Positions 1,427 to 32,000 of a DNA stretch of 32,000 nucleotides are shown piece after piece; the first letter of the stretch is position 1, and every line of letters begins with the position of its first letter. The notes under the pieces were generated by a model that did no database searches, was not told the origin of the DNA, and saw only the letters and a list, made by a program, of their open reading frames with translations. The translations under genes and the position numbers were made by a program. This stretch comes from a bacterium (GTDB lineage Bacteria; UBP7; UBA6624; JBBIMK01): positions 29,083 through 61,082 of the forward strand of contig JBBIMK010000011.1 of assembly GCA_037444445.1 (NCBI GenBank). The letters are read 5' to 3'.

Positions 1427-2581
1427 TTATATGGGCAGGATGACCCAGGCGAGCCAGAAGGGGGGCAAACCGGTGGAAAGGGGGGCAGATGTTTCCCACT
1501 GGTCGTTGTTTGTTCGTAAGATTCGTAAGCCGGGAGCGGATGGGTTTCTATCCAGCACGAATAGTTTATCTCCCCCGGGCGCCAAAGCAATTCTGGCAAG
1601 GTGAAATCCTTCGGAAACGAGAAGGGTCTGCTCCACCATTTTCGTAATCGGATTGAAACTCACCAGAAGGGTTTTGAAAGAAGAATCCGAGAGGATGGCA
1701 TATCCTTTGCCCGGCTGGAGAGCGAAATCTAACAAGTCTCCGCCCAGTGCTTCTTCCGTAATCAGGAAGCCGCGTGAGGAAAGGTTCACCGGGTTCACGA
1801 CTTCAATGCCCCCATCTAATACCCCGTATTCACCCGTATCCGCTACATACAGCAAGCCGTCCTGAAACAGGAGGTCAGTTCCCGCACAAGGATTTTTCCC
1901 CTGCAGGGGTATGGCATCGGGTTCCGGGGTGGAAGGATTGACATCTACGAGAGTATCCGTAGTGGCATCCACAACCGCTAAAAGGCCGTTCCCAGCAGGA
2001 GTGTAGAGATTATTCCGGTCCAGTCGCTGGATGGCGATGAATAGTCGGTTGTCGTGAAGCAGCATATAGGACATCTCAGGAAGTCCATCCGCATCAGCGA
2101 AGGGTGAGAGGTCAATTTCCTTCATAGTGGCACCATTGGTCAGGTTCATCTTGAGGAGTTCAGGACGGTCGTATCGGGAGATATAGGCGTAGTCGGGACT
2201 GATGAATTCCATATCATAGGGGTTTGAGCCAGCGCCTGTAGACCACTGGGAAGTAGTGGGCTGAAAACCCTGCCCGGGGTTCACCATCAGCACATTGTCT
2301 TGCCCCCGGCGGTTGATCACCCAGATGCGCCCTCTGTTAGAGTCATATACTGCGGTGGCATCGCTGTGTATGGGATAGTTCAGCACGGTCATCTGGTTTG
2401 TATCCATAGAATAGGTGGCATACTGGCCGGTTTGAAAATCGGTGGTGACGATGAAGGCGAATGAACTGCCCACGATGGGAGTCGGTAACGGAGGATTACC
2501 CCCGCACGCTGAGAATCCGGAAATCACCATAAACAGGCAGAGAGTGAGAACCCTCTGCCTCCTGATACAGAAAAGATACAT
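1427..2581 (-). CDS. putative lipoprotein, probable beta-propeller fold, under cobalamin riboswitch control
   Basis: 384-aa ORF. GGAGG lies 9 nt upstream of the ATG. N-terminal signal with lipobox-like ISGFSAC|GG. Recurring strand-rich blades (GRIWVINRRGQDNVLMVNP, RLFIAIQRLDRNN, LLYVADTGEYGVLDGGIEVVNP, KLFVLDRNPSAPGLRIL). Confidence 0.75.
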   Translation of the reverse strand: MYLFCIRRQRVLTLCLFMVISGFSACGGNPPLPTPIVGSSFAFIVTTDFQTGQYATYSMDTNQMTVLNYPIHSDATAVYDSNRGRIWVINRRGQDNVLMVNPGQGFQPTTSQWSTGAGSNPYDMEFISPDYAYISRYDRPELLKMNLTNGATMKEIDLSPFADADGLPEMSYMLLHDNRLFIAIQRLDRNNLYTPAGNGLLAVVDATTDTLVDVNPSTPEPDAIPLQGKNPCAGTDLLFQDGLLYVADTGEYGVLDGGIEVVNPVNLSSRGFLITEEALGGDLLDFALQPGKGYAILSDSSFKTLLVSFNPITKMVEQTLLVSEGFHLARIALAPGGDKLFVLDRNPSAPGLRILRTNNDQWETSAPLSTGLPPFWLAWVILPI

Positions 2582-11528: not shown

Positions 11529-11718
11529 AAATGGAGAATGGGTAACCCTCTGCGATTACCCTCACTTCTCATTCCACACCCCGCAGGGCGAAATGACTGT
11601 TTCCACCCCCTTTTCCTCCTTCCCCACACAAACTAAGATGTGAAATCACTTGAATCTTCCCTCAACCTGTAGTAGGGTGATTCGCCTTTCGCCATCCGCC
11701 ACAGGCTTTGCTGAATGG

Positions 11719-11754
11719 AAAATAATATTCTGACATTCTTGAGAATGTGAGAAT
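11719..11754 (-). terminator. candidate intrinsic terminator after the ARPP-1-like gene
   Basis: Inverted repeat ATTCTGACATTC (11727-11738) / GAATGTGAGAAT (11743-11754), 11 of 12 bp paired, 4-nt loop. On the minus strand it is followed by ATTATTTTCC. It also contains the tandem 8-mer GAGAATGT x2. Confidence 0.4.
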
Positions 11755-11830
11755 GTTGCAGGCAGAGATGTCAATAGTGAATAGTCTCACACATTTCTAT
11801 ACAGAAGCCACATCTGTTGGAAATAACGAT

Positions 11831-12787
11831 TTACTTCGGGAGGTGGAAGAGGGAAAGATGTAGAGGGTGGGAGTTGGTAATAAGGGCTTTGCCGATGTTT
11901 TTCCCACGGCTGAACCGCTTTTCGTATCCTTTGCCCACCGCTGGATATTTCTCCCAGGAAGGATATTGAACCGCCAGAGAGAAGAATTTTTGAATTTCTT
12001 CCTCGTCCAGTTCTGAAGATTCTTCACCGGCGCCTTCCAGGTCCTCTAATGCATCCAGAGAATAACTTAACAGGAGTTTTGGGGCGAGACGGGTGAACAG
12101 GGAGGGCGTGGAAAAAATGTCCAGGCAGAGGATTCGGCGCTGGGTGGCCGCCAGGAAACCTACCTGCTCTGGCTTCAGGATGAGAATTTCAGATTTCACA
12201 CCGGTAGATGTGGACCGCGGATTCACTATCTGGCGGGTGTACCGGGATAATTCCTGGTGTTTGGAGGCATAGGACTGGCTCATAGAAGAGGTGGCAGAAG
12301 CCACGCGCAGGGTGGAGAGTTTTCGGTCCACCTCATTCCAGATGCCTGCCTGGTCGGCCTCAAATCTGCCGGTGGTTTTCAGGGATTTGTGAACGGAGCG
12401 TGTGGACAGACCACGAAGGGTGGGATAGGCACAATATAAACTGCTGGAGAAGGCTTTTGAACCGCTCCATCGCCCCGCTTCCACACAGGCTACGGGAGCG
12501 GAAATCCGACTCTCCGCAGGCAGACGAAAGGAGGTAACGAACACCCGGTTCTGCAGGGCTCCGATGACCTCTTCGCCATCCAGAACGAACACATCCTGCC
12601 CCCCATCATTTTCCATTTCCACTTCAGGCACCCTCTCCGTATCGTGCACTCTCACCGATTTGGATGCCAGCCCTTCTTCCAGTGTCAGCACCGGGTCCTC
12701 CCCTTTCCCGCCTCCAAAAACCGGGAAGAGGTAAAGATTGCTGGAAAAAACAGGCTCACCCATTTCCCATTTCATTTCCTTTGCCAT
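11831..12787 (-). CDS. hypothetical protein resembling the ARPP-1 / DUF6569 family
   Basis: 318 aa. GGAGGAG RBS. N-terminal pattern LYLFPVFGGG...LTLEEGL...VPEVEMENDGGQDVFVLDGEEVIGALQNRVFVTSFRLPA...VACVEAGRWSGS matches my recollection of that family (LTVFPL...ELxVxNxxxxPVLLLDGEELxGAKQNR...VSCVEQGRW). Confidence 0.6.
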   Translation of the reverse strand: MAKEMKWEMGEPVFSSNLYLFPVFGGGKGEDPVLTLEEGLASKSVRVHDTERVPEVEMENDGGQDVFVLDGEEVIGALQNRVFVTSFRLPAESRISAPVACVEAGRWSGSKAFSSSLYCAYPTLRGLSTRSVHKSLKTTGRFEADQAGIWNEVDRKLSTLRVASATSSMSQSYASKHQELSRYTRQIVNPRSTSTGVKSEILILKPEQVGFLAATQRRILCLDIFSTPSLFTRLAPKLLLSYSLDALEDLEGAGEESSELDEEEIQKFFSLAVQYPSWEKYPAVGKGYEKRFSRGKNIGKALITNSHPLHLSLFHLPK

Positions 12788-12983
12788 TTCTCTCTCCTCC
12801 TTCTGCTTCTATTGTAGCACACCAGTTCGCGGGTAGGGCAGTGGGCTCGCATCCCAGTAAAAATGAACGATTGATTTTCCTCTCCCCCTGTTTCTATCCC
12901 ACGCAGAGGGACAGGAAAAAGAGGAAGGGTTGTATATACAATGAAAAGAGGATAAAATGGAAAGTGGTAAGGGGGTGCTGGAA

Positions 12984-13403
12984 ATGAGAGTGCATGAATT
13001 TATGAGCCACCCTGTGGTGACGGCAAAACCGGACGACTCTCTCCTCTCCGCAGCCCGGGCGATGAAAGAGCAAAATGTGGGGTGCGTGGTCGTGATGGAT
13101 GGCGGGGAAATTAAGGGCATTCTCACGGACCGGGACATCGTCATCCGGGTCGTCAGCCCCGGCCTGGAGCCGGAGGAGATCCGGGTGGAGGATGTGATGA
13201 CCCGGCAGGTGGTGGCGATTCGTGAGGATGCAGACATAGATTTTGCCCTGAACCTGATGAAAAATAATCGGATTCGCCGCCTGCCCGTGTTAAATGGCAG
13301 TGGCCAGCTCACCGGAATTGTGTCTATCTGCGACCTTGCCCGGGTAATCGGGCGGGATACCCAGAATTTCCTCGCCACCGTCTCCGCCCATCTCCCCCTC
13401 TGA
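12984..13403 (+). CDS. CBS domain pair protein
   Basis: MRVHEFMSHPVVTAKPDDSLLSAARAMKEQNVGCVVVMDGGEIKGILTDRDIV and a second CBS unit (VMTRQVVAIRED...RRLPVLNGSGQLTGIVSICDL). The ATG at 12984 follows AAGGGGGTG. The track start at 12957 is possible but lacks an RBS. Confidence 0.8.
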   Translation: MRVHEFMSHPVVTAKPDDSLLSAARAMKEQNVGCVVVMDGGEIKGILTDRDIVIRVVSPGLEPEEIRVEDVMTRQVVAIREDADIDFALNLMKNNRIRRLPVLNGSGQLTGIVSICDLARVIGRDTQNFLATVSAHLPL

Positions 13404-13419
13404 CACCCGGGCTTTTTTG

Positions 13420-14229
13420 ATGTTGCCCCGTTATGCCTCTCTTGCCTTCCTGAATGCGGTGTATGAAAAATACCACCGCCCCCTATTCATCCCCACCGAT
13501 GTGATTCTCTTCCCTCACCGCTTTCAAAATGAAACCGACATTGAAATCTCTGCACTCCTTTCTTCCATCCTCGCATTCGGAACGGTAAAAAGTATATCCA
13601 CGAACCTGGAAAGCCTCTTCAGAAGAATGGGAAAAAAGCCCTATGAATATATCCGTAATGCGCTCTGGCAAAGGGATGAAAAGTTTTTCTCCTCCTTCCG
13701 TCACCGTTTTGTTCGGGGTGAGGACCTGGTATGCATCCTCCGGGCTTTACAGAAGATATACGAACGATACCCTTCGCTGGAATCCCTGTTCTTACAGGGA
13801 TATTCTTCACCGGAAAGCCGGAATGACACCCCGATAAGCAACACAGGACACGCCATCGCTTTTTTCACGAGTGAAATCCGTCAGCACTGCCCCTCCTGTT
13901 CTTCTCTAACTCCAGGGGTTCGTTTTCTCCTTCCTTCACCCGGAAGGGATGGAAGCGGGAGCGCCTGCAAGCGATGGAACCTCTTCCTGCGCTGGATGGT
14001 TCGGAAGGATGAAATAGATTTCGGGCTGTGGCGGAATGTGAGCCCTGCTGACCTCATCATGCCATTAGACACCCACATCATCCAGATTTCTCGCAGGTGG
14101 GGGTTCCTGCACCGCAAGAGTATAGATTGGAAATCGGCGGAAGAAGTGACGCAGGCGTTTCGTCGTTTTTCCCCCCGTGACCCCGTGAAATACGACTTCT
14201 CCCTCACCCGCTACTTTATGCTGAAATAA
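13420..14229 (+). CDS. TIGR02757/DUF2400-like protein (HhH-GPD superfamily-like)
   Basis: ~269 aa. DIEISALLSSILAFG, ACKRWNLFLRWMVRKDEIDFGLW, IMPLDTHI motifs as I recall them for TIGR02757. The start is ATG 13420 or TTG 13417. Confidence 0.7.
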   Translation: MLPRYASLAFLNAVYEKYHRPLFIPTDVILFPHRFQNETDIEISALLSSILAFGTVKSISTNLESLFRRMGKKPYEYIRNALWQRDEKFFSSFRHRFVRGEDLVCILRALQKIYERYPSLESLFLQGYSSPESRNDTPISNTGHAIAFFTSEIRQHCPSCSSLTPGVRFLLPSPGRDGSGSACKRWNLFLRWMVRKDEIDFGLWRNVSPADLIMPLDTHIIQISRRWGFLHRKSIDWKSAEEVTQAFRRFSPRDPVKYDFSLTRYFMLK

Positions 14230-14262
14230 TGCCCCCCGGACCTGTGGTAAAATAATGACAGA

Positions 14263-14550
14263 ATGCCAAAACGACGCTTTAGAGTTGCAAAGACGAAAAA
14301 GGAAAGCCCGGAGACCATAACCTTGAAGGAACCCCCGGAAAAGATGGAGGAGTATCCGGGCAAGAAATTACGAGAAGAGGGGGCAGAATCCCTCACCCCC
14401 GCCCAACTTCTCGCCGTCCTCTCCTGGCAAGTCAAGCGCCTTGAAAACGCACTCACAGAAGTCACGAGAGGAGCAGGTATCACCGTCTGCAAACGCCACA
14501 AGGAACGGCGCATAAGGAAGATTACGCTGTTTTCCGGAGGTTACGTGTGA
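14263..14550 (+). CDS. small basic hypothetical protein (95 aa)
   Basis: Preceded by the extended -10 TGGTAAAAT (14245-14253), so nearly leaderless. Contains GAESLTPAQLLAVLS, reminiscent of the first helix of RadC N-terminal modules. 4-bp overlap with the next ORF. Confidence 0.45.
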   Translation: MPKRRFRVAKTKKESPETITLKEPPEKMEEYPGKKLREEGAESLTPAQLLAVLSWQVKRLENALTEVTRGAGITVCKRHKERRIRKITLFSGGYV

Positions 14551-14747
14551 TGTGGTGGTGTGAGGGGTGCAAGCGGGAGTTTGACCAGGATCGGATGGCG
14601 GTGGAGGTCCGGTTTGGATATGTGGACCCGCCGGATGCCGACCGTCCGGAAGAGGACCAGTGGGAACGGTTCACCACCGACTCCTCGTATGCGCCGCTGT
14701 GCGACGATTGCGCCATCGCCTACATTCGTGGCGACATCAACCTCTGA
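14547..14747 (+). CDS. small zinc-ribbon-like hypothetical protein (66 aa)
   Basis: CEGC...CDDC cysteine pairs at each end, acidic centre. GTGATG overlap with the upstream ORF suggests translational coupling. Confidence 0.5.
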   Translation: MMWWCEGCKREFDQDRMAVEVRFGYVDPPDADRPEEDQWERFTTDSSYAPLCDDCAIAYIRGDINL

Positions 14748-14865
14748 GCTTCAGATCGGGGAACGAGGCGGGAGGGGGCGGGCAGTATGAGTGAATGGCG
14801 ACTGGTGGCACATCATTGAGAATGCAACTAAGACGGGGATTGGGGGGTTTACTTTGGCTCTAAAT

Positions 14866-14908
14866 CCTTGACACAAATATAGGGGGTATAGTTTAGTATA
14901 ATAATAGT
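14866..14908 (+). repeat. promoter-like direct repeat, copy A
   Basis: CCTTGACACAAATATAGGGGGTA (23 nt, identical to 19013-19035), then 5 nt, then TAGTATAATAAT (identical to 19038-19049). TATAAT at 14897-14902 puts the predicted +1 on the A of the ATG at 14909. Confidence 0.8.
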
Positions 14909-15607
14909 ATGGATGGACGAAAGGCAAAACTTTCAGGCAGGATGAAGGGAGACAAATTTCGGGAGGAGGCCAGCTTGTTTCCTACACCAGAAGGGAAGGA
15001 GCCGGCACCTCCGCCGCTGAAGCCGGAGGCAGACTATTTCCATCCGGGCGGTAAACTGCTTTACACGGGTGCAGAGAACTGCACGGATGAGGAACTTGTG
15101 GCGATACTTATCGGGTATGGTTGCAAGGGGCGGACTGCCAAGCAGATTGCCGACGAAATCCTGCTGGACTGGTATTCGGTGAACGGCATGATGAATAAGT
15201 TCAATCGGCAATGTATTACCCGGGAAGACTTGCTTACATATCGGTGTATGGACGAACTGAAAGCACGACGGGTCCTGGCAGGTCTTGAACTTGCACGGCG
15301 AATCTGTAAGTATGTGGGCTACCAGGGGCGGACGCTGGAGATGATGAAGGATGACCGCCCGGATGTAGAAGTGCTGACGGACCTGTTCCATGACCTGGGC
15401 ACCAGGCTTGAAGAAGCGCGGCTCATCGCTCAAGGATACCTCAGCAAATATAACGGCTTATTGGGATGGATGGGCAAGCCGCTGGCGGATATGTTGAAAA
15501 TCAGGGGCATTGGCAAGGTGAAAGTGGCGCGCTTGGGCACGGTTTATGAAATCGCACGCCGAACTACTAAGCGGGAGGACCTGGACTGGCGCGTTTGGGT
15601 GAAATGA
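14909..15607 (+). CDS. tandem RadC-N-terminal-like (UPF0758 HhH) protein lacking the JAB/MPN domain
   Basis: 232 aa. Module 1: LLYTGAENCTDEELVAILIGYGCKGRTAKQIADEILLDW...ELKARRVLAGLELARR. Module 2: ARLIAQGYLSKYNGLLGWMGKPLADMLKIRGIGKVKVARLGTVYEIARR. Both follow the RadC N-terminal pattern (L-D-ELLA-LL-G-KG...A-L...GL...L..I-GIG-KA--L-A--EL-RR). No HNHPSG-type JAB motif. Confidence 0.7.
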   Translation: MDGRKAKLSGRMKGDKFREEASLFPTPEGKEPAPPPLKPEADYFHPGGKLLYTGAENCTDEELVAILIGYGCKGRTAKQIADEILLDWYSVNGMMNKFNRQCITREDLLTYRCMDELKARRVLAGLELARRICKYVGYQGRTLEMMKDDRPDVEVLTDLFHDLGTRLEEARLIAQGYLSKYNGLLGWMGKPLADMLKIRGIGKVKVARLGTVYEIARRTTKREDLDWRVWVK

Positions 15608-15616
15608 GGTGAGATT

Positions 15617-18151
15617 GTGGTGGGAAAGATAACGGCGAGCACTCCCCAATCAGAAGGAACTGGAATCCAGCATATCAACCGGCAAATCCCACCCCTCGCC
15701 CACGCGCCGATGCATGTCTGGCACAAGTTCTGGTCTCGCAAGACCTGGAATGTGGTCGCAGAGCATATCAAGTGCTATTGCCCGGAGGGCGGGGTCGTTC
15801 TGGACCCGTTCGCGGGCAGCGGGGTCACCGCTATGGAAGCTCTCAGGAACGGACGGCGTGCCATCGTTTGCGATATTCTGCCCGTTGCCACCGAAATTAT
15901 TCGCCTCACCATCCAACCCGTGAACATTGAAGAACTCCAAAAAGCGTTCCGACGGGTAGAGAGGAGAGTAAGGAACAGAATTGAAAGATTGTATATGACC
16001 AAGTGTCGGAAATGTGGGGCTGAATTCCCCTTTACCTGCGCTGTCTGGGATGCGGGAGAATTGGAAGAAATCCGTTATGAACAGTGTCCGAAATGCGGCG
16101 ACCGCAGGGAACAGAATTGCCCCCCCACATCTTCGGATATTGCTTTGCTTCGTCAGATAGAATCGCGGCAGGTCAAGGAATGGTATCCGCGGAATCGGTT
16201 GTACTATCCGGACGGGCGGGCTTTCAAGGAAAAACAGCAGTACGAATCACTGGACCAACTGTTCACAAAGCGGAATCTTCAAGCCCTCGCCTGGCTCATG
16301 GATGCCATAGAGAAAGAACCCAACCCTTTGCTCAGGGATTTTTTGAAGATTGCCTTTACCTCAATGGTCCACTTGTGTAGCCGGCTTGCGGCCGCTGGTC
16401 GTCCCGGTTATCGCCCATTTAGTGGCGTGGGATGGAACCAGCAGAGTTACTGGTATACGCCGCTTTACTTAGAATCCAATATCTGGCTCAAATTTGAAAG
16501 CGCCATCTTTGGTCCACAGGGGCTTCTCAGAGGCAAGGAGGAATCTAATGAGTATTTTGCAAATAAACGCATGGTCAAAACCCTCCGCACCTTTCTAAAG
16601 GGGACGGGCCACATCTACATCCACACCGGCGATTGCCTGAGATTGATGAAACAAATGCCGGATGGCTGTGTGAATTACATTTTCACCGACCCACCTTATG
16701 CATCCTCCATTCAATTCGGAGAACTGGCATATCTCTGGGTTGCGTGGCTCAAGAAAGACAAGGGCTACTTAGACAGCCTGTTGCGAGATGAGGTTGTGGA
16801 AAACCTGAATCAAGGCAAATCTTTTGATTTTTATATAGCCAGAGTGAGAACAGCCTTTGACGAAATGTTCCGCGTCCTCAAGCGGGGTGGGTGGCTGACC
16901 GTCACTTTTCATAATCCTACACTCAAAGTGAGGAATGCAACAATCCGGGCCGGGCATATTGCGGGGTTTGATTTTGAGCATATCCATCTGCAGGAACTGG
17001 CTCGTCCTTCGGCAAAATCGCTTCTCCAGCCTTACGGGTCTGCCCACGGTGACTTCTATCTGCGATTTCGCAAGCCGGCCGCTGTAAGGACTTTGACCGC
17101 AGGTGAACGAACAGCAGATAAGTTTGAGCGTGTGGTCGTGGATGCGGTGATTCAAGTCCTTGCAGAGCGCGGGGAAGCAACCCCAAAGTATGTGATAGAT
17201 AACTATGTGGACCCCATCCTCTCCAGGAACGGGTTCTTCCCGTCCATAGAAGTGGACGGAAAAACATTGAGTGTGGATGAGGTTCTGAAGAGGCACGAGG
17301 GGCAGGAATTCATCAAGGTGCCAATGGAAGTTGGTGGGCACAAGGGCTATGGCTGGTGGTTGAAAAACCCGCAACAGGTCAAGAACCTTGAGAAAATCCC
17401 CCTTTCAGAGCGTGTGGACCAGGCGATTATACGCTTGCTGATGGAGAGGGGAAAAGCCACTTTCACAGAAGCATTGGAGAAAGTCTTTACAGAATTCCCC
17501 AATTCGTTGACTACGGACAGCACAAGCGTAAAGGAAGCGCTGGAACGCTATGGCAACAAGCGAGGAAGTGGCTCCTCCGCTACTTATGTGCTAAAGCCTG
17601 TCATCAGACAAACTGAAAGAGAGCACGACCAAATCATCGGGCACCTCGCTGAAATCGGCAGGGCCCTCGGATACGGGGTATGGATCGGGATGCCCGAACA
17701 ATCCAGAACATATCCACGCAAGAATAAACCCCTGAGTGAATGGGTTACCGCAGACCTCAACCAGGTGGACAATGTGCTGAGCCTTGAGGATGCAGAAAGG
17801 GTAGATTGTCTCTGGGTGAGCGAAAGAAAAATTGTCTATTCTTTTGATGTAGATAGGTTTACTCCGCTGATGGAGTCGCTGAGGCGCGGCGCCAGTATCT
17901 CAGAACCTGTGAAACGGTATCTTGTCCTTCCGGATGAACGCCACACTCAATTCCAGAAAAGGCTGAAGAACCCGCTGTTCAACGAGGATTACGAGAAATA
18001 TGGATGGGATGTTCTTTACTTCAGCGCCCTTCAGTCCAACTTCAAATCCCTGAAAGCCGGCAAAAAGACGATAGAAGAAATAGCCGGTTCCCCTCCCGAG
18101 AATCCCCACCGCAATCCCGAAGTGAAGCCCACAAAATTATTTGACCCCTGA
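15617..18151 (+). CDS. DNA N6-adenine/N4-cytosine methyltransferase with permuted motif order, Zn ribbon, winged-helix-like middle region and C-terminal PD-(D/E)xK-like domain
   Basis: 844 aa. The GTG start follows AGGTGAG. Motif X/I at the N-terminus (MHVWHKFWSRK...VVLDPFAGSGVTAMEA, aa 32-75). CxxC...CxxC at aa 130-160. TGDCLRLMKQMPDGCVNYIFTDPPY at aa 337-361. FRVLKRGGWLTVTF. C-terminus EREHDQIIGHLAEIGRALGYGVWIG...VDCLWVSERKIVYSFDVDR (aa 667-747). Confidence 0.85.
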   Translation: MVGKITASTPQSEGTGIQHINRQIPPLAHAPMHVWHKFWSRKTWNVVAEHIKCYCPEGGVVLDPFAGSGVTAMEALRNGRRAIVCDILPVATEIIRLTIQPVNIEELQKAFRRVERRVRNRIERLYMTKCRKCGAEFPFTCAVWDAGELEEIRYEQCPKCGDRREQNCPPTSSDIALLRQIESRQVKEWYPRNRLYYPDGRAFKEKQQYESLDQLFTKRNLQALAWLMDAIEKEPNPLLRDFLKIAFTSMVHLCSRLAAAGRPGYRPFSGVGWNQQSYWYTPLYLESNIWLKFESAIFGPQGLLRGKEESNEYFANKRMVKTLRTFLKGTGHIYIHTGDCLRLMKQMPDGCVNYIFTDPPYASSIQFGELAYLWVAWLKKDKGYLDSLLRDEVVENLNQGKSFDFYIARVRTAFDEMFRVLKRGGWLTVTFHNPTLKVRNATIRAGHIAGFDFEHIHLQELARPSAKSLLQPYGSAHGDFYLRFRKPAAVRTLTAGERTADKFERVVVDAVIQVLAERGEATPKYVIDNYVDPILSRNGFFPSIEVDGKTLSVDEVLKRHEGQEFIKVPMEVGGHKGYGWWLKNPQQVKNLEKIPLSERVDQAIIRLLMERGKATFTEALEKVFTEFPNSLTTDSTSVKEALERYGNKRGSGSSATYVLKPVIRQTEREHDQIIGHLAEIGRALGYGVWIGMPEQSRTYPRKNKPLSEWVTADLNQVDNVLSLEDAERVDCLWVSERKIVYSFDVDRFTPLMESLRRGASISEPVKRYLVLPDERHTQFQKRLKNPLFNEDYEKYGWDVLYFSALQSNFKSLKAGKKTIEEIAGSPPENPHRNPEVKPTKLFDP

Positions 18152-18207
18152 GTGAAATCAGTTAGGAACCCGCAAATCCACATAGAAAGTGCAATAGGAG
18201 GGAAAAA

Positions 18208-18744
18208 GTGAAGAGAAATAAAGTCCTGAATTATCCCTGGTATGTGTGGTCCTTTATAGGAATTGGATTGGGTGTCGCCGTATTAGCAACTTTCTGTAAG
18301 ATATCGGTTGAATTGGGGACGATGTGGATACTCTTGCTCACTCTCATCGCTGTCATCCTCTATTTTTATGAGACAAAGCGGATTGCTGATTGGGGGCCGA
18401 TGCAGTTCCGCCTGTACTGGATTTCGGAAGTTTTCCGCTATACACTCAATAAAAGGATTGATGACTGTATTTCAGCTCTTAAATCAGATAAAAGGGAGGG
18501 GTTGGATGCTTCTATTAGAAAGGAGATAAATAGCCAGTTAAGTTTTCTGGCTGAGTTGTGGCCAGACCCGAGCGCAGGGAAGAAAATCGGGGAAGAAAAG
18601 AGGGACGAGTTTGAGAAGAAATGGGAGGCAGTTGATGAGAAATATACAGAGAAAAACCGCTGCGAGCTTAGTAGTTATTTATATGAACTAAAAAATTGGC
18701 TCCAAACTGAGTTGGGGAAACTGGCTAAACTGCCAGACCCCTGA
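18208..18744 (+). CDS. two-TM membrane protein with charged helical cytoplasmic tail
   Basis: 178 aa. The GTG start is 6 nt after GGAGGG. TM1 is YVWSFIGIGLGVAVLATF, TM2 is MWILLLTLIAVILYFY. The C-terminal ~110 aa are Lys/Glu-rich. Visibly more AT-rich than the flanks. Confidence 0.65.
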   Translation: MKRNKVLNYPWYVWSFIGIGLGVAVLATFCKISVELGTMWILLLTLIAVILYFYETKRIADWGPMQFRLYWISEVFRYTLNKRIDDCISALKSDKREGLDASIRKEINSQLSFLAELWPDPSAGKKIGEEKRDEFEKKWEAVDEKYTEKNRCELSSYLYELKNWLQTELGKLAKLPDP

Positions 18745-19012
18745 TACTGACAGAGTAAGGGTTCTTGGTTCTATAAGGTCAAGCCCACACCAAAATCCTC
18801 TAATCAAGACACCTGCAATACCAGGAGACAAGAGGGTCGTGCCTGACGAGTGAGCCACCAAACCGCCTCCCGCCTAACAGCCTCAGGTGGCAGGCCTTGA
18901 AACTTGACTTATCCTCAAATCCAGATACCAGGCCTTGCCAAAACGCGTCTCTAAACTTCGGTATCATTGGGTAAAATTTCAAGATCAGATACCTCTGACC
19001 CACATGCGAACC

Positions 19013-19052
19013 CCTTGACACAAATATAGGGGGTAGGTAGTATAATAATGGT
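19013..19052 (+). repeat. promoter-like direct repeat, copy B
   Basis: Same 23-mer and 12-mer as copy A, separated by 2 nt instead of 5. TTGACA at 19015-19020, TATAAT at 19041-19046 (20-nt spacing), or TAGTAT at 17-nt spacing. It lies upstream of the 96-aa ORF, which has GGAGG at 19084-19088. Confidence 0.8.
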
Positions 19053-19097
19053 GAGGCGAATCGGTTTTGAGGCAATGAGGGAAGGAGGCGTGATGAG

Positions 19098-19388
19098 ATG
19101 AAAGAGAAGACTTATATGGAAAAACTGGACCGGGAGGGACGCAGGAAGTTTATGCTGGCGACGCAACTGCTCAGGGATTCCCTTTCCGATGTAGAATCCA
19201 CCCGGCAAAGAGCGGGTATGACCCTGATGGCGCTGCAACGGGAACTTCTGCCAGCCCTGAAGGCCCTTCACGAGAACCCGGAAGCCCTGAGAGAGGCGGG
19301 GCTGGAGCCATCACGCCGCACCCTCACCGCTCTGAGAGGCATCGCTTTCTTCCGGAGTGCGTTTTGTGGCAAAATACCCTTTTCATAA
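19098..19388 (+). CDS. hypothetical helical protein (96 aa)
   Basis: GGAGG lies 9 nt upstream. Driven by repeat copy B. No recognisable family. Confidence 0.5.
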   Translation: MKEKTYMEKLDREGRRKFMLATQLLRDSLSDVESTRQRAGMTLMALQRELLPALKALHENPEALREAGLEPSRRTLTALRGIAFFRSAFCGKIPFS

Positions 19389-19422
19389 AGGGCAGGTAGC
19401 CCTCCCCTACAATGCCGTTTTT

Positions 19423-20337
19423 TTATATGTAGCCGAGGGAGCGCAGTAGGTCTTCCCGCTGTCGCCACTTCTTCTTCACTTTCACCCAGAGTTCTAAATA
19501 GATATGCCTGCCGAGGAGTTTTTCTATATCCTTTCGGGCGGAAGAGCCGATGGCCTTCAACATAGCTCCATCCTTACCGATGAGGATTTTCTTCTGGGAT
19601 TCCTGCTCCACTGCGAGAATGGCTGAGATATGAAGTAAGTCCCTTTTCTCCTCCAGAGTTACATCCATCACGGCGGTAGAATGAGGGATTTCCTCTTTTG
19701 TGAGTTCAAAAACCTTCTCCCGGATGATTTCAGCGATTTGCAGGGGGAGGGGTAAATCTGTCTTCATCTCCGCTGGAAAATAGGGGGGTCCTTCGGGCAG
19801 AATGGATAGAATTTCCTGCAGGAGCCGGTTCAGGTGGATTCCTTTCAATGCAGAAATCAAGAAAGTCTTTTGAAATGGGAAGACAGCGGATAAGGATTTT
19901 TCACGGGCGTGCCACTGGTTCTCAGCAATCAAATCAATCTTGTTAATCAGAAGGAACACCGGAGTGGAAAGGGCAGAGAGTTTTTGAAGAGCCAGGGATT
20001 CCCAGTTCCCTATCCCTTTTGTGGCATCCACGAGGAACAGGATGAGGTCGGAGCCGGAAAGAGCCTGAAAAGCGGTGGAAACGAGGAATTGTTCCACGGG
20101 CAGGCGTGGGTTCACGATTCCGGGCGTGTCCACGAAAACAATCTGGGCATCGGGCAGGTGTAGAACGGCGGAGGTTTTGAATCGGGTGGTCTGAGGCTTT
20201 TCAGAGATGATGGAAACCTTTTCGCCCACGAGAGCATTCACCAGGGTGGATTTCCCCGTATTGGTGGCGCCTGAAACGACCACGATACCCGAACGAAAAG
20301 CCACCCTATCCTTCTTTTCTCCCTGCCCCCCACCCAA
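19423..20337 (-). CDS. era: GTPase Era
   Basis: G1 GATNTGKST, G2 PQTTR, G3 DTPG, G4 NKID, C-terminal KH domain (KKILIGKDGAMLKAIG). The ATG at 20337 overlaps nadK by 32 nt. The alternative GTG at 20304 starts 2 nt after the nadK stop. Confidence 0.9.
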   Translation of the reverse strand: MGGGQGEKKDRVAFRSGIVVVSGATNTGKSTLVNALVGEKVSIISEKPQTTRFKTSAVLHLPDAQIVFVDTPGIVNPRLPVEQFLVSTAFQALSGSDLILFLVDATKGIGNWESLALQKLSALSTPVFLLINKIDLIAENQWHAREKSLSAVFPFQKTFLISALKGIHLNRLLQEILSILPEGPPYFPAEMKTDLPLPLQIAEIIREKVFELTKEEIPHSTAVMDVTLEEKRDLLHISAILAVEQESQKKILIGKDGAMLKAIGSSARKDIEKLLGRHIYLELWVKVKKKWRQREDLLRSLGYI

Positions 20338-30382: not shown

Positions 30383-30546
30383 CCCGCTACCTCCCTCGCC
30401 AATGAGTTACTTTACCACAAAAAATGCCGGCGCAGTGCCTGTCCTCACCCGTCTGGAAAATGGGCAATGAAGGGTGGTCAACAAATCCTGCATTTTGTTA
30501 CCTCAAAGAGGGCAATGGGGGCTGAAATTCCCCCATTTTTTATTAC

Positions 30547-30585
30547 TTGACAGAAGTAACAATTTAGCAATAATGTTATGGATGG
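30547..30585 (+). promoter_or_regulatory. sigma70-like promoter resembling the island repeat (copy C, partial)
   Basis: TTGACA (30547-30552), 16 nt, AATAAT (30569-30574). The segment TTTAGC-AATAAT-GT-TATGGATGG parallels copy A's TTTAGTAT-AATAAT-AG-TATGGATGG. The ATGs at 30578 and 30582 are within a few nt of the predicted +1. Confidence 0.45.
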
Positions 30586-30912
30586 CAATGGGTGAGCGGG
30601 AGGAAACCAGATATATTCATTCTGGAGAACGAGAACCAGATTCAAGAACCTCTACCTTCTGTGAACGAGATAAAATCTTCACTACGGTAAATGAGTGATA
30701 TGATTATGACCCTTTAGAAATTATGGTGCCCCGGAGGTTTTAGACGAGGAAGAGCGAGAAAAATTCCAGAGGAAAGACTTAAAAAGCTGGAGGAAGAGGT
30801 AAAAAAGGAGTTTCCGCGGGATTATGCACTTCAGCCAGTCCATAAAGGCAAGAGAAAATTATGACAAATTTATTCGGAACGCTACAAAAAAGGGTTTGAA
30901 GATGAGGGTGAA

Positions 30913-31563
30913 ATGAGAAGAAAGGCAACGATATATCTGGATACATCGGTTCCGGGCGCCTTTTTTGACCCACCAGATAGTCCGGTTTATAAAGCGACTG
31001 CTACTTTCTGGGATAATGTGCTTCCTGATTACGATGCTTATATTTCAGAACTTGTTGAAATTGAAATAGCGGATTTAAAAAATATCAGCAGGAGAAAAAA
31101 ACTGGAAAGTCTTATCCGAAAATTTAAAGTATTAGAGGTTTCTCAAGAGGCGGTAGAGGTCTCTCAAGAATATCTGAAATTATTACGGATACCTGAAAGA
31201 GATGCGCTCCATGTTGCTATTGCCAGTGTGGAAGGAATGGATTATCTTGTTACATGGAATTTGCGGCATCTTGCCCGGGAGCGAACACGAAGGGCGGCGG
31301 ATTATATTAACCTGACCCTGCTCTTGAAAACAATTGTTATTTATACTCCATTAGATTTTATTGACGAGGTTAATATGGAAAAAAAGGAAGCAACCCGATG
31401 GGAATTGGGTTGTTTTGACATATTTGAAAGCCCCTTCTTAAACGAGTTACACAAAATACGAAGGGAACAGTCAGAAAAGCCAGAAGGATTATCTCCCGGG
31501 GAACTTGCTGAACATATAAAGTATCAAGTAAGAAAGCTAAGAAAAGGAAATCCATGTAAATAA
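30913..31563 (+). CDS. PIN-domain (VapC-like) protein with ~65-aa C-terminal extension
   Basis: IYLDTSV (first acidic residue), ISELVEIEI, ERDALHVAIASVEGMDYLVTWNLRHL (distal acidic residue). After ~aa 150 an in-frame segment begins at GAGG-N6-ATG (31376): MEKKEATRW...LNELHKIRREQSEKPEGLSPGELAEHIK. Confidence 0.7.
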   Translation: MRRKATIYLDTSVPGAFFDPPDSPVYKATATFWDNVLPDYDAYISELVEIEIADLKNISRRKKLESLIRKFKVLEVSQEAVEVSQEYLKLLRIPERDALHVAIASVEGMDYLVTWNLRHLARERTRRAADYINLTLLLKTIVIYTPLDFIDEVNMEKKEATRWELGCFDIFESPFLNELHKIRREQSEKPEGLSPGELAEHIKYQVRKLRKGNPCK

Positions 31564-32000
31564 TGAAACCGACTGAACTTTTACATCCAGAGCAAAGACG
31601 CCCAGGCAAAGCCTACTTAGTGAATGAACTTCGCAAAGCGGTATATACATGGCAGGAACAAGGTTATCCAGGCACAACACCTTCCACAAAAAGACTTTTA
31701 AAATACTGCCCAACTAAAAAAGTTATCTCATTTTTCTTTCTTTTTTTTCTTGAGGAGAGTATAGAAAAACTACTAAGTAGGCCCACACCAATAAAGTATC
31801 TGATTAACATCATAGGAAAGAGATTTTTCTTAGAGGTTGTTAAAGACAAAATAAGATATATGACAAAATTTGTCAGAAAGGATTGGTATTTGTGGTTCAG
31901 CCAGAGTGTGGCATATCCGAACTCAGTTCGTCTATACCACCAAAATAGAAGGATATCCGAACTCAGTTCGGATATAAACGAGCTATATGCCATTGCGCTT
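31563..32000 (+). CDS. open reading frame running off the window; N-terminus faintly resembles helicase/Res-type restriction subunits
   Basis: The ATG overlaps the PIN stop (TAATG). 146 codons are open to nt 32000 in AT-rich DNA, and it is absent from the track only because no stop is reached. MKPTELLHPEQRRPGKAYLVNELRKAVYTWQEQGYPGTTPSTKRLLKY...FFLEESIEKLL recalls the (V)NEIR..V..WR..GYPG.T..T..LL..WF...F..Q.EAIET pattern. It competes with minus ORF 31664..31993. Confidence 0.3.
   Translation, partial: MKPTELLHPEQRRPGKAYLVNELRKAVYTWQEQGYPGTTPSTKRLLKYCPTKKVISFFFLFFLEESIEKLLSRPTPIKYLINIIGKRFFLEVVKDKIRYMTKFVRKDWYLWFSQSVAYPNSVRLYHQNRRISELSSDINELYAIAL
31913..31975. repeat. two copies of the 18-mer ATATCCGAACTCAGTTCG, each hairpin-forming
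   Basis: Copy 1 is at 31913-31930 (imperfect palindrome with TCTATA). Copy 2 is at 31953-31970 and extends to the perfect 11+1+11 palindrome ATATCCGAACT-C-AGTTCGGATAT (31953-31975). The copies are spaced 40 nt apart. Confidence 0.6.

Follow-up and report, generated by a model that had tools for sequence, protein, structure and literature searches.

The locus and the repeat

The DNA analyzed here is a stretch of 32,000 nucleotides (nt) from a bacterial contig (JBBIMK010000011.1, positions 29,083 to 61,082), referred to throughout as the window, and our subject is a pair of promoter-like sequences of about 45 base pairs (bp) that lie within it 4.15 kilobases (kb) apart, each 5′ of one of two unrelated neighboring operons. 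The window is chromosomal, containing gyrB, fabF, aroA, era and the genes for DAHP synthase, NAD kinase, a TlyA-type methyltransferase and an HtrA-type protease, as well as a cobalamin riboswitch. Both promoter-like sequences belong to an island bounded by a DUF2400 gene (13417–14229) and era (19423–20337, minus strand). The order within this island is two small open reading frames (ORFs), orf95 and orf66, then the first copy of the repeat (copy A), a RadC-like gene, a DNA methyltransferase gene, a gene for a predicted membrane protein, the second copy (copy B), and an ORF of 96 amino acids (aa).

The two copies, both read on the plus strand, are built from the same parts. Copy A consists of an upstream block, the 23-mer CCTTGACACAAATATAGGGGGTA (14866–14888, with TTGACA at 14868–14873), a linker, TAGTT (14889–14893), and a −10 block, the 12-mer TAGTATAATAAT (14894–14905, with TATAAT at 14897–14902). 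In copy B the identical 23-mer CCTTGACACAAATATAGGGGGTA lies at 19013–19035 (TTGACA at 19015–19020) and the identical 12-mer TAGTATAATAAT at 19038–19049 (TATAAT at 19041–19046), joined by the linker GG (19036–19037), which gives the arrangements TTGACA-17-TAGTAT and TTGACA-20-TATAAT. The original prediction had described these blocks, with linkers of 5 and 2 nt, as matches far beyond chance between otherwise unrelated flanks, and the sequence bears this out on each count. When the window was searched for the 23-mer on either strand with up to 3 mismatches, there were 2 matches against 0.00 expected from 100 shuffled sequences, and the inner 16-mer gave the same 2 matches against 0.09 expected. 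Similarity begins about 5 nt 5′ of TTGACA and ceases about 3 nt after AATAAT; 3′ of the −10 block, local alignment of copy A with copy B does not score above shuffles (p = 0.13–0.26), and a longer duplication reaching through the leader to the start codon was rejected on the same grounds. Relative to the start codon, the shared segment runs from −43 to −4 in copy A and from −85 to −49 in copy B. The form of the motif for scanning is TTGACACAARTATAGGGGGTA, at up to 3 mismatches.

Conservation in a sister strain

A sister strain is represented by two contigs from the public run SRR11582170, reached via protein look-ups: L085, which spans window positions 11605–15837 at 93% identity, and L084, which spans 15825–20290; the two overlap by 14 nt. 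The flanking genes are about 95–97% identical to those of the window, and synonymous divergence between the strains is 0.06–0.12. Both copies of the repeat are present at orthologous positions, copy A in L085 and copy B in L084, and because this assembly is independent, an assembly artefact is excluded. Copy B is the same in all 37 bases, including its 23-mer. Copy A of the sister strain reads TTGACACAAGTATAGGGGGTA-GTC-GTATAATAAT, with one change in the 23-mer (20 of the 21 bases from TTGACA onward are kept) and a linker unlike that of window copy A, which is unlike that of copy B as well. Across the four copies the core is thus TTGACACAA[A/G]TATAGGGGGTA, a linker of 3–7 nt, and then GTATAATAAT[A/G]GT between unrelated flanks; GTATAATAAT is invariant in all four, as is a run of five G residues, and little or no variation is seen in the 15 nt that separate TTGACA from the linker. 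The repeat is real, non-random and conserved.

Between the strains, the rest of the copy A intergenic region is only 66–83% identical, and no other non-coding part of the locus has diverged as far; within the motif the differences are concentrated in the linker. Over the 72 orthologous block positions, drift would predict about 7 changes, and 2 are seen (P about 0.03 by a Poisson estimate). The two blocks thus seem to be under constraint, or homogenized by gene conversion, while the spacing between them appears free to vary.

Promoter features

All four copies carry a perfect TTGACA and a perfect TATAAT, and three of the four have an overlapping TAGTAT. Between TTGACA and TATAAT there are 23 nt in window copy A and 20 nt in window copy B, the values given in the original prediction, against 19 nt in copy A of L085 and again 20 nt in copy B of the sister strain. 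In copy B, TTGACA-17-TAGTAT has canonical geometry and is the top sigma-70-like site within 13–21 kb in a consensus scan. The reading of these sequences as promoters fits because the shared segment coincides with the extent of a promoter, and because its blocks are kept in the sister strain where the flanks and linker diverge.

The motif is not simply the usual promoter of this organism, as far as 32 kb shows, and in this respect an objection that had been foreseen, that the repeat might be a common promoter consensus, finds no support. Reading of the upstream regions shows that other promoter-like sites in the window are mostly of the extended −10 form, TGnTAnAAT, near a start codon, and the conserved block was not found at any other promoter in the window. 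The majority of recognizable promoters (for example those upstream of 9229, 11831 on the minus strand, 14263, 21964 on the minus strand, 27670 and 28757) are such extended −10 elements, 8–30 nt from the start codon and with no clear −35, which suggests that short or absent leaders may be common in the organism.

Several other possibilities were considered for the element. Resemblances to sigma-54, SigB-like and extracytoplasmic function (ECF)-like promoters and to G-tract phase variation were checked by eye and set aside. There is a short CCCCT/AGGGG pairing in copy B that is absent from window copy A. No relevant Rfam family and no transfer RNA gene was found at the locus, and the 268-nt intergenic region 5′ of copy B folds no better than shuffled sequences on either strand.

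The unit downstream of copy A

The first gene after copy A encodes the RadC-like protein (14909–15607, plus strand; Pfam UPF0758_N, 1.8e-12). Only the UPF0758 N-terminal helix-hairpin-helix region was matched; there was no match to the JAB domain and no sequence match in the PDB. It is followed by the second gene of the unit, for an 844-aa DNA methyltransferase of the N6_N4_Mtase type identified with Pfam and PADLOC (15617–18151, plus strand), and by the third, taken from the ORF listing, for the 178-aa predicted membrane protein (18208–18744, plus strand). No terminator-like site was predicted between the genes of the unit.

The spacing between copy A and the RadC-like gene bears on how the gene is expressed. 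In both strains TATAAT ends 6 nt 5′ of an in-frame ATG at 14909, which would make this the probable start of a leaderless messenger RNA (mRNA), as the original prediction proposed. An alternative ATG at 14942 encodes M12, the residue at which the N-termini of homologues align; the upstream ATG is nonetheless kept in L085, and a 6-nt indel leaves the extension from the ATG to the equivalent of M12 (11 or 13 codons) open and in frame. Translation from 14909 would begin with MDGRK, and from 14942 with MKGDK. The start chosen by the gene caller, TTG at 14975 with an upstream GGAGG, was rejected, as neither the TTG nor the GGAGG is kept in L085. Leaderless mRNAs made from a −10 element 6–8 nt before the start codon are common in Actinobacteria and Deinococcus-Thermus. 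The likeness here is in the distance, which is 6 nt in both strains and 7–8 nt in distant homologues; the difference is that the start of the RadC-like gene is a predicted one and that M12 fits the N-terminus of its homologues.

Modules that pair related genes occur elsewhere, in L081 and L082 at 73% and in L083 at 61% protein identity, in different genomic neighborhoods; in L081 and L083 the RadC-like gene is paired with a methyltransferase. These distant modules are without the 23-mer, but they have TATAAT or TACAAT 7–8 nt before the ATG. Because of this −10 hexamer, a leaderless first gene seems to be a property of the RadC-like/methyltransferase module as such. In the lineage of the window, the position of the new promoter is 33 nt farther 5′, and an in-frame ATG comes with it.

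The methyltransferase itself is a mosaic when compared with L084, with patches of 50–65% identity (at about 15967–16066, 16367–16462, 16763–16862 and 17263–17962) in a background of about 95%. The sister assembly breaks some 30–40 bp before the onset of methyltransferase divergence at 15867. These features hint that several alleles coexist in the sister sample and that specificity-determining segments are being exchanged. In L084 the homologue of the membrane protein (2378–2921) is divided between two reading frames, and identity to the window protein is only 52–62% in the C-terminal half, which could reflect decay or an assembly error. The gene after the methyltransferase in L083 (9948–10679) encodes a DUF6602 protein with matches to models of PD-(D/E)xK and NucC-type nucleases, and that module looks like a complete restriction-modification (R-M) pair. 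The methyltransferase of the window may instead be an orphan, with the membrane protein standing where L083 has the DUF6602 protein.

The unit downstream of copy B

Copy B precedes the 96-aa ORF (19098–19388, plus strand). Its predicted leader of about 45 nt with GGAGG, another element of the original prediction, is correct from the sequence. Over 79 residues the ORF shares 95% identity with P0006 of L084, and its first 79 codons have a ratio of nonsynonymous to synonymous change (pN/pS) of 0.20 against the sister strain; it is a real gene under purifying selection. The RadC-like protein and the 96-aa protein have no mutual similarity, that is, the genes downstream of the two copies are not paralogous.

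Homologues of the 96-aa ORF are 94 aa long (58% and 40% identity), and the C-terminus of the window protein is altered relative to this family. In L084, and in L167, which holds the 58% relative, the ORF is followed by an overlapping gene of 187–189 aa that the window does not have; the 187-aa product in L084 gives a weak, sub-threshold match to alpha/beta-hydrolases. The two strains differ here by a 1.2-kb indel (window 19334–19422 against L084 3510–4739), through which L084 has the additional 187-aa gene and a 151-aa gene on the minus strand. The window has lost the hydrolase-like gene through the 1.2-kb indel, which has also replaced the C-terminus of the ORF after about residue 79. The 94/96-aa protein gives only sub-threshold matches, to leader families of ribosomally synthesized and post-translationally modified peptides (RiPPs) and to a lambda-repressor-like chain. 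A model of the 94-aa protein is an all-helical bundle with a predicted local distance difference test (pLDDT) score of 82, and it has no significant structural match and no helix-turn-helix match.

Two minus-strand ORFs that overlie copy B (18800–19075 and 18951–19271) were rejected as genes, because 13 of 91 residues of the first differ between the strains, about as many as there are nucleotide changes in that segment (92–96% identity). The first 14 nt of the predicted copy B transcript, ATGGTGAGGCGAAT (19048–19061), are perfectly complementary to a stretch of methyltransferase coding sequence (15899–15912). An antisense pairing of this leader with the methyltransferase was likewise set aside: the leader in L084 has one change with no compensatory change, and the match is probably due to chance.

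Distribution of the motif

The motif is restricted to the lineage of the window, and homologous operons elsewhere are without the 23-mer. A 21-mer had no match in the GTDB representative genomes or the JGI metagenomes, a degenerate 19-mer had none in 2.9 million viral contigs, and a 56-bp region gave no BLAST match in phage or plasmid collections. For the copy B unit specifically, in L167 the ORF and its partner lie 44 nt after a PhoU gene without a promoter of the copy B kind, and in L168 the region 5′ of the ORF homologue is unrelated to the motif. This lineage is sparsely sampled, with one other genome of the same species-level group among 15 billion proteins. The only other genome of the lineage has the same arrangement, and the next relatives are not syntenic at the locus: the best identity of Era is 47% among GTDB representatives and 51% in JGI metagenomes, with synteny stopping at Era, and the closest DUF2400 relative (L086, 79%) is on a contig that ends 117 nt past the gene. 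Locus searches based on Era and on DUF2400, in genomes and metagenomes, found no empty site with a single copy of the repeat.

These searches also bear on the idea that the element is a promoter for a phage-type single-subunit RNA polymerase. In its 23-bp length and its ...ACAC...TATAGGG core, the element is reminiscent of the promoters of T7, SP6 and K11. The resemblance, seen by eye only, lies in TATAGGGGG against TATAGGGAGA in T7, in TGACAC as in SP6, and in the 23-bp length of the block. However, the specificity region does not align without gaps, the window contains neither a phage-type RNA polymerase nor other phage genes, and the motif is absent from the viral contigs and the phage and plasmid records just described. 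Furthermore, the invariant TATAAT with an ATG 6 nt later is explained by recognition through sigma-70 and not by a phage-type enzyme, and we find the idea barely credible.

Other features of the window

Between the DUF2400 gene and copy A lie two small genes on the plus strand. The first, orf95 (14263–14550), encodes a shortened paralog of the RadC-like protein that corresponds to its N-terminus (BLASTP, 2e-05). A −10-like TAAAAT of its own precedes the ATG of orf95 by 9 nt, and the gene may be the remnant of an earlier RadC-like module at this site. The second, orf66 (14547–14747), encodes a zinc-ribbon-like protein judging by the CxxC...CxxC pattern of its translation. Both are kept in L085 under weaker constraint, with pN/pS of 0.46–0.52.

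Farther away, the cobalamin riboswitch (RF00174, 2598–2783, minus strand, 100.8 bits) lies directly 5′ of a 384-aa ORF (1427–2581, minus strand) that has no Pfam match. At the other end of the window, positions 30500–32000 have a guanine plus cytosine content of 38–40%, against about 52% elsewhere, and contain a PIN-domain gene (30913–31563) and, at 31913–31975, a 23-nt inverted repeat that is nearly perfect; this stretch, too, may have been acquired.

Discussion

Taken as a whole, these observations are best explained if the two copies are paralogs of one compact promoter of about 45 bp that was duplicated within this lineage and now stands before two unrelated, separately acquired transcription units, a reading to which we assign a probability of roughly 0.6. 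The promoter itself did not travel with either unit, because both units exist elsewhere without the motif. The lineage would have placed this compact promoter before two adjacent units of separate origin; its parts are the block with TTGACA, the 15 nt of conserved spacer, the linker that varies and the GTATAATAAT −10 block. From copy A, transcription would begin at or within a few bases of the ATG at 14909 and produce a leaderless mRNA for the RadC-like protein, the methyltransferase and the membrane protein. From copy B, it would begin about 45 nt before the 96-aa ORF, and in the sister strain the unit would run on into the hydrolase-like gene. The housekeeping sigma factor most likely acts for the most part through the perfect −10, with TTGACA helping where the spacing fits, as in TTGACA-17-TAGTAT, and the indels in the linker, which set the spacing at 19–23 nt, would be later than the duplication and would alter promoter strength. 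Since the upstream block is common to both units, a factor that binds it may also co-regulate them, although we hold this to be less likely than not.

Several points weigh against this reading. The promoter and its start sites are predicted ones. None of the copies has TTGACA and TATAAT at a canonical distance (the values are 19, 20, 20 and 23 nt), and a consensus scan finds no pair of hexamers at 16–18-nt spacing in window copy A. The statistics of conservation are weak, with only two genomes of the lineage in the collections, and gene conversion between the copies could mimic selection. In addition, the count of two copies covers the 32-kb window, and the motif could be commoner across the genome. 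Finally, no regulator has been identified, and two observations that concern a regulator also count here: the 23-mer, as read from the sequence, has no consistent dyad symmetry, and Pfam annotation of 29 ORFs of the window reveals no gene of the MerR or Xre type beside the copies.

It is also worth considering that the two copies might be the marks of an inserted cassette, as the original prediction proposed in its second interpretation. The copies would then be direct repeats left by insertion through recombination at a promoter that was already there, whether site-specific or of the Campbell type, or substrates for deletion of the 4.15-kb cassette between them, in which case a single hybrid promoter would remain and drive the 96-aa ORF. 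The repeats do bracket a module whose relatives sit in differing genomic contexts, and the locus is a hot spot for indels, with the 1.2-kb indel by copy B, the truncated RadC-like paralog by copy A and the mosaic methyltransferase. Likewise, 23 bp of identity is about the minimum length for RecA-dependent exchange. However, searches of the interval from 14.2 to 19.4 kb with Pfam, NCBIfam and PADLOC found no recombinase, be it an integrase, a transposase or another kind, and both strains retain both copies together with the cassette. The repeat corresponds exactly to a promoter, and two identical blocks around a divergent linker are unlike a single crossover core. Of the distant modules, L081 ends inside the methyltransferase, so only L083 is informative, and no comparable bracketing repeats occur there. 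The 96-aa ORF and its hydrolase-like partner, found after PhoU in L167, are of separate origin, and therefore copy B cannot be taken simply for the promoter native to a core gene. With no recombinase and no comparable repeats around the distant module, nothing speaks positively for the cassette boundary, and we consider it very unlikely.

A different question is whether regulation, and not duplication, explains the identity of the copies. The 23-mer would then be mainly the site of a dedicated regulator, either a spacer activator of the MerR kind or a controller-like protein, and the two units would form a small regulon; this overlaps with the duplicated promoter that we favor. On its side, the 15 nt after TTGACA are near-invariant in all four copies, at positions where sigma-70 promoters constrain little. 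In three of the four copies, moreover, consensus-like hexamers lie 19–20 nt apart around a conserved spacer sequence, which is the geometry of MerR-family promoters. Against a MerR-type activator stand the 23-nt spacer of window copy A, the lack of a dyad in the spacer and the lack of a nearby MerR gene. The 94-aa protein has no helix-turn-helix match, and the motif is absent 5′ of the homologous operons in relatives. As a whole, the proposal of a dedicated regulator seems unlikely to us.

The comparison with controller (C) proteins deserves to be made separately. In C-protein operons of R-M systems such as PvuII, AhdI and Esp1396I, the operator lies 17–18 nt before a leaderless start (PMC2632904), and in Esp1396I one regulator acts at two promoters (PMC2632904, PMC2691842). 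The copy A unit is similar in that its operon opens with the gene of a small DNA-binding-type protein and also encodes a modification enzyme, and in that this first gene is probably leaderless. A conserved element lies upstream here too, and from its end to the ATG there are 20 nt in the window and 16 nt in L085. The differences are that the first gene is of the RadC-type helix-hairpin-helix kind and not an Xre-type helix-turn-helix protein, that the element is non-palindromic and has no double C-box where the family has palindromic C-boxes of about 35 bp, and that the window has no separate nuclease gene. In addition, controller-dependent promoters are typically without a good −10 (PMC2632904), whereas the −10 here is perfect. 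Features that define the C-protein family, and others that define the MerR family, are missing in this case.

The reuse of a promoter is not new in itself. In work on putative mobile promoters, similar promoters are described as reused before unrelated genes in many genomes (PMC3575422), and the screen by Matus-Garcia, Nijveen and van Passel (2012) is set out as requiring a minimum of 80% identity across 50 nt or more between −150 and −50 of the start codon, which mostly excludes the −10 (PMC3575422). The present repeat is alike in that near-identical upstream sequences precede non-homologous genes of one genome with no known mobile element, and in that the identity may likewise reflect either recent duplication or selection. 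It is unlike in that the shared segment is about 45 bp, includes the −10 and lies closer to the genes, outside the formal limits of the screen described there, and in that the copies are neighbors at a distance of 4.15 kb with a single operon between them. The repeat is therefore a further example of a known phenomenon and not a new class of element.

One can also imagine more far-reaching roles, which we think quite unlikely. The 23-mer could be recognized by an unknown factor peculiar to this deep-branching lineage, with the 45-bp module serving as a portable expression cassette placed before newly acquired genes, or the cassette could be lost by recombination between the copies. If the portable cassette were real, more copies would be expected elsewhere in the genome, enriched at accessory modules. 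If recombination occurred, loss of the methyltransferase cassette would switch the methylation state and leave the downstream operon under a hybrid promoter.

The value of the duplicated promoter for understanding this organism lies mainly in annotation: it offers two transcription units with their probable starts, a corrected start for the RadC-like gene and a motif to scan for. If the reading is right, it would also provide a methyltransferase operon whose first gene can be tested for leaderless expression, in a lineage of which hardly any relatives have been sequenced, and it would be a clean, small example of how acquired genes are wired into expression by a copied promoter whose linker was altered later.

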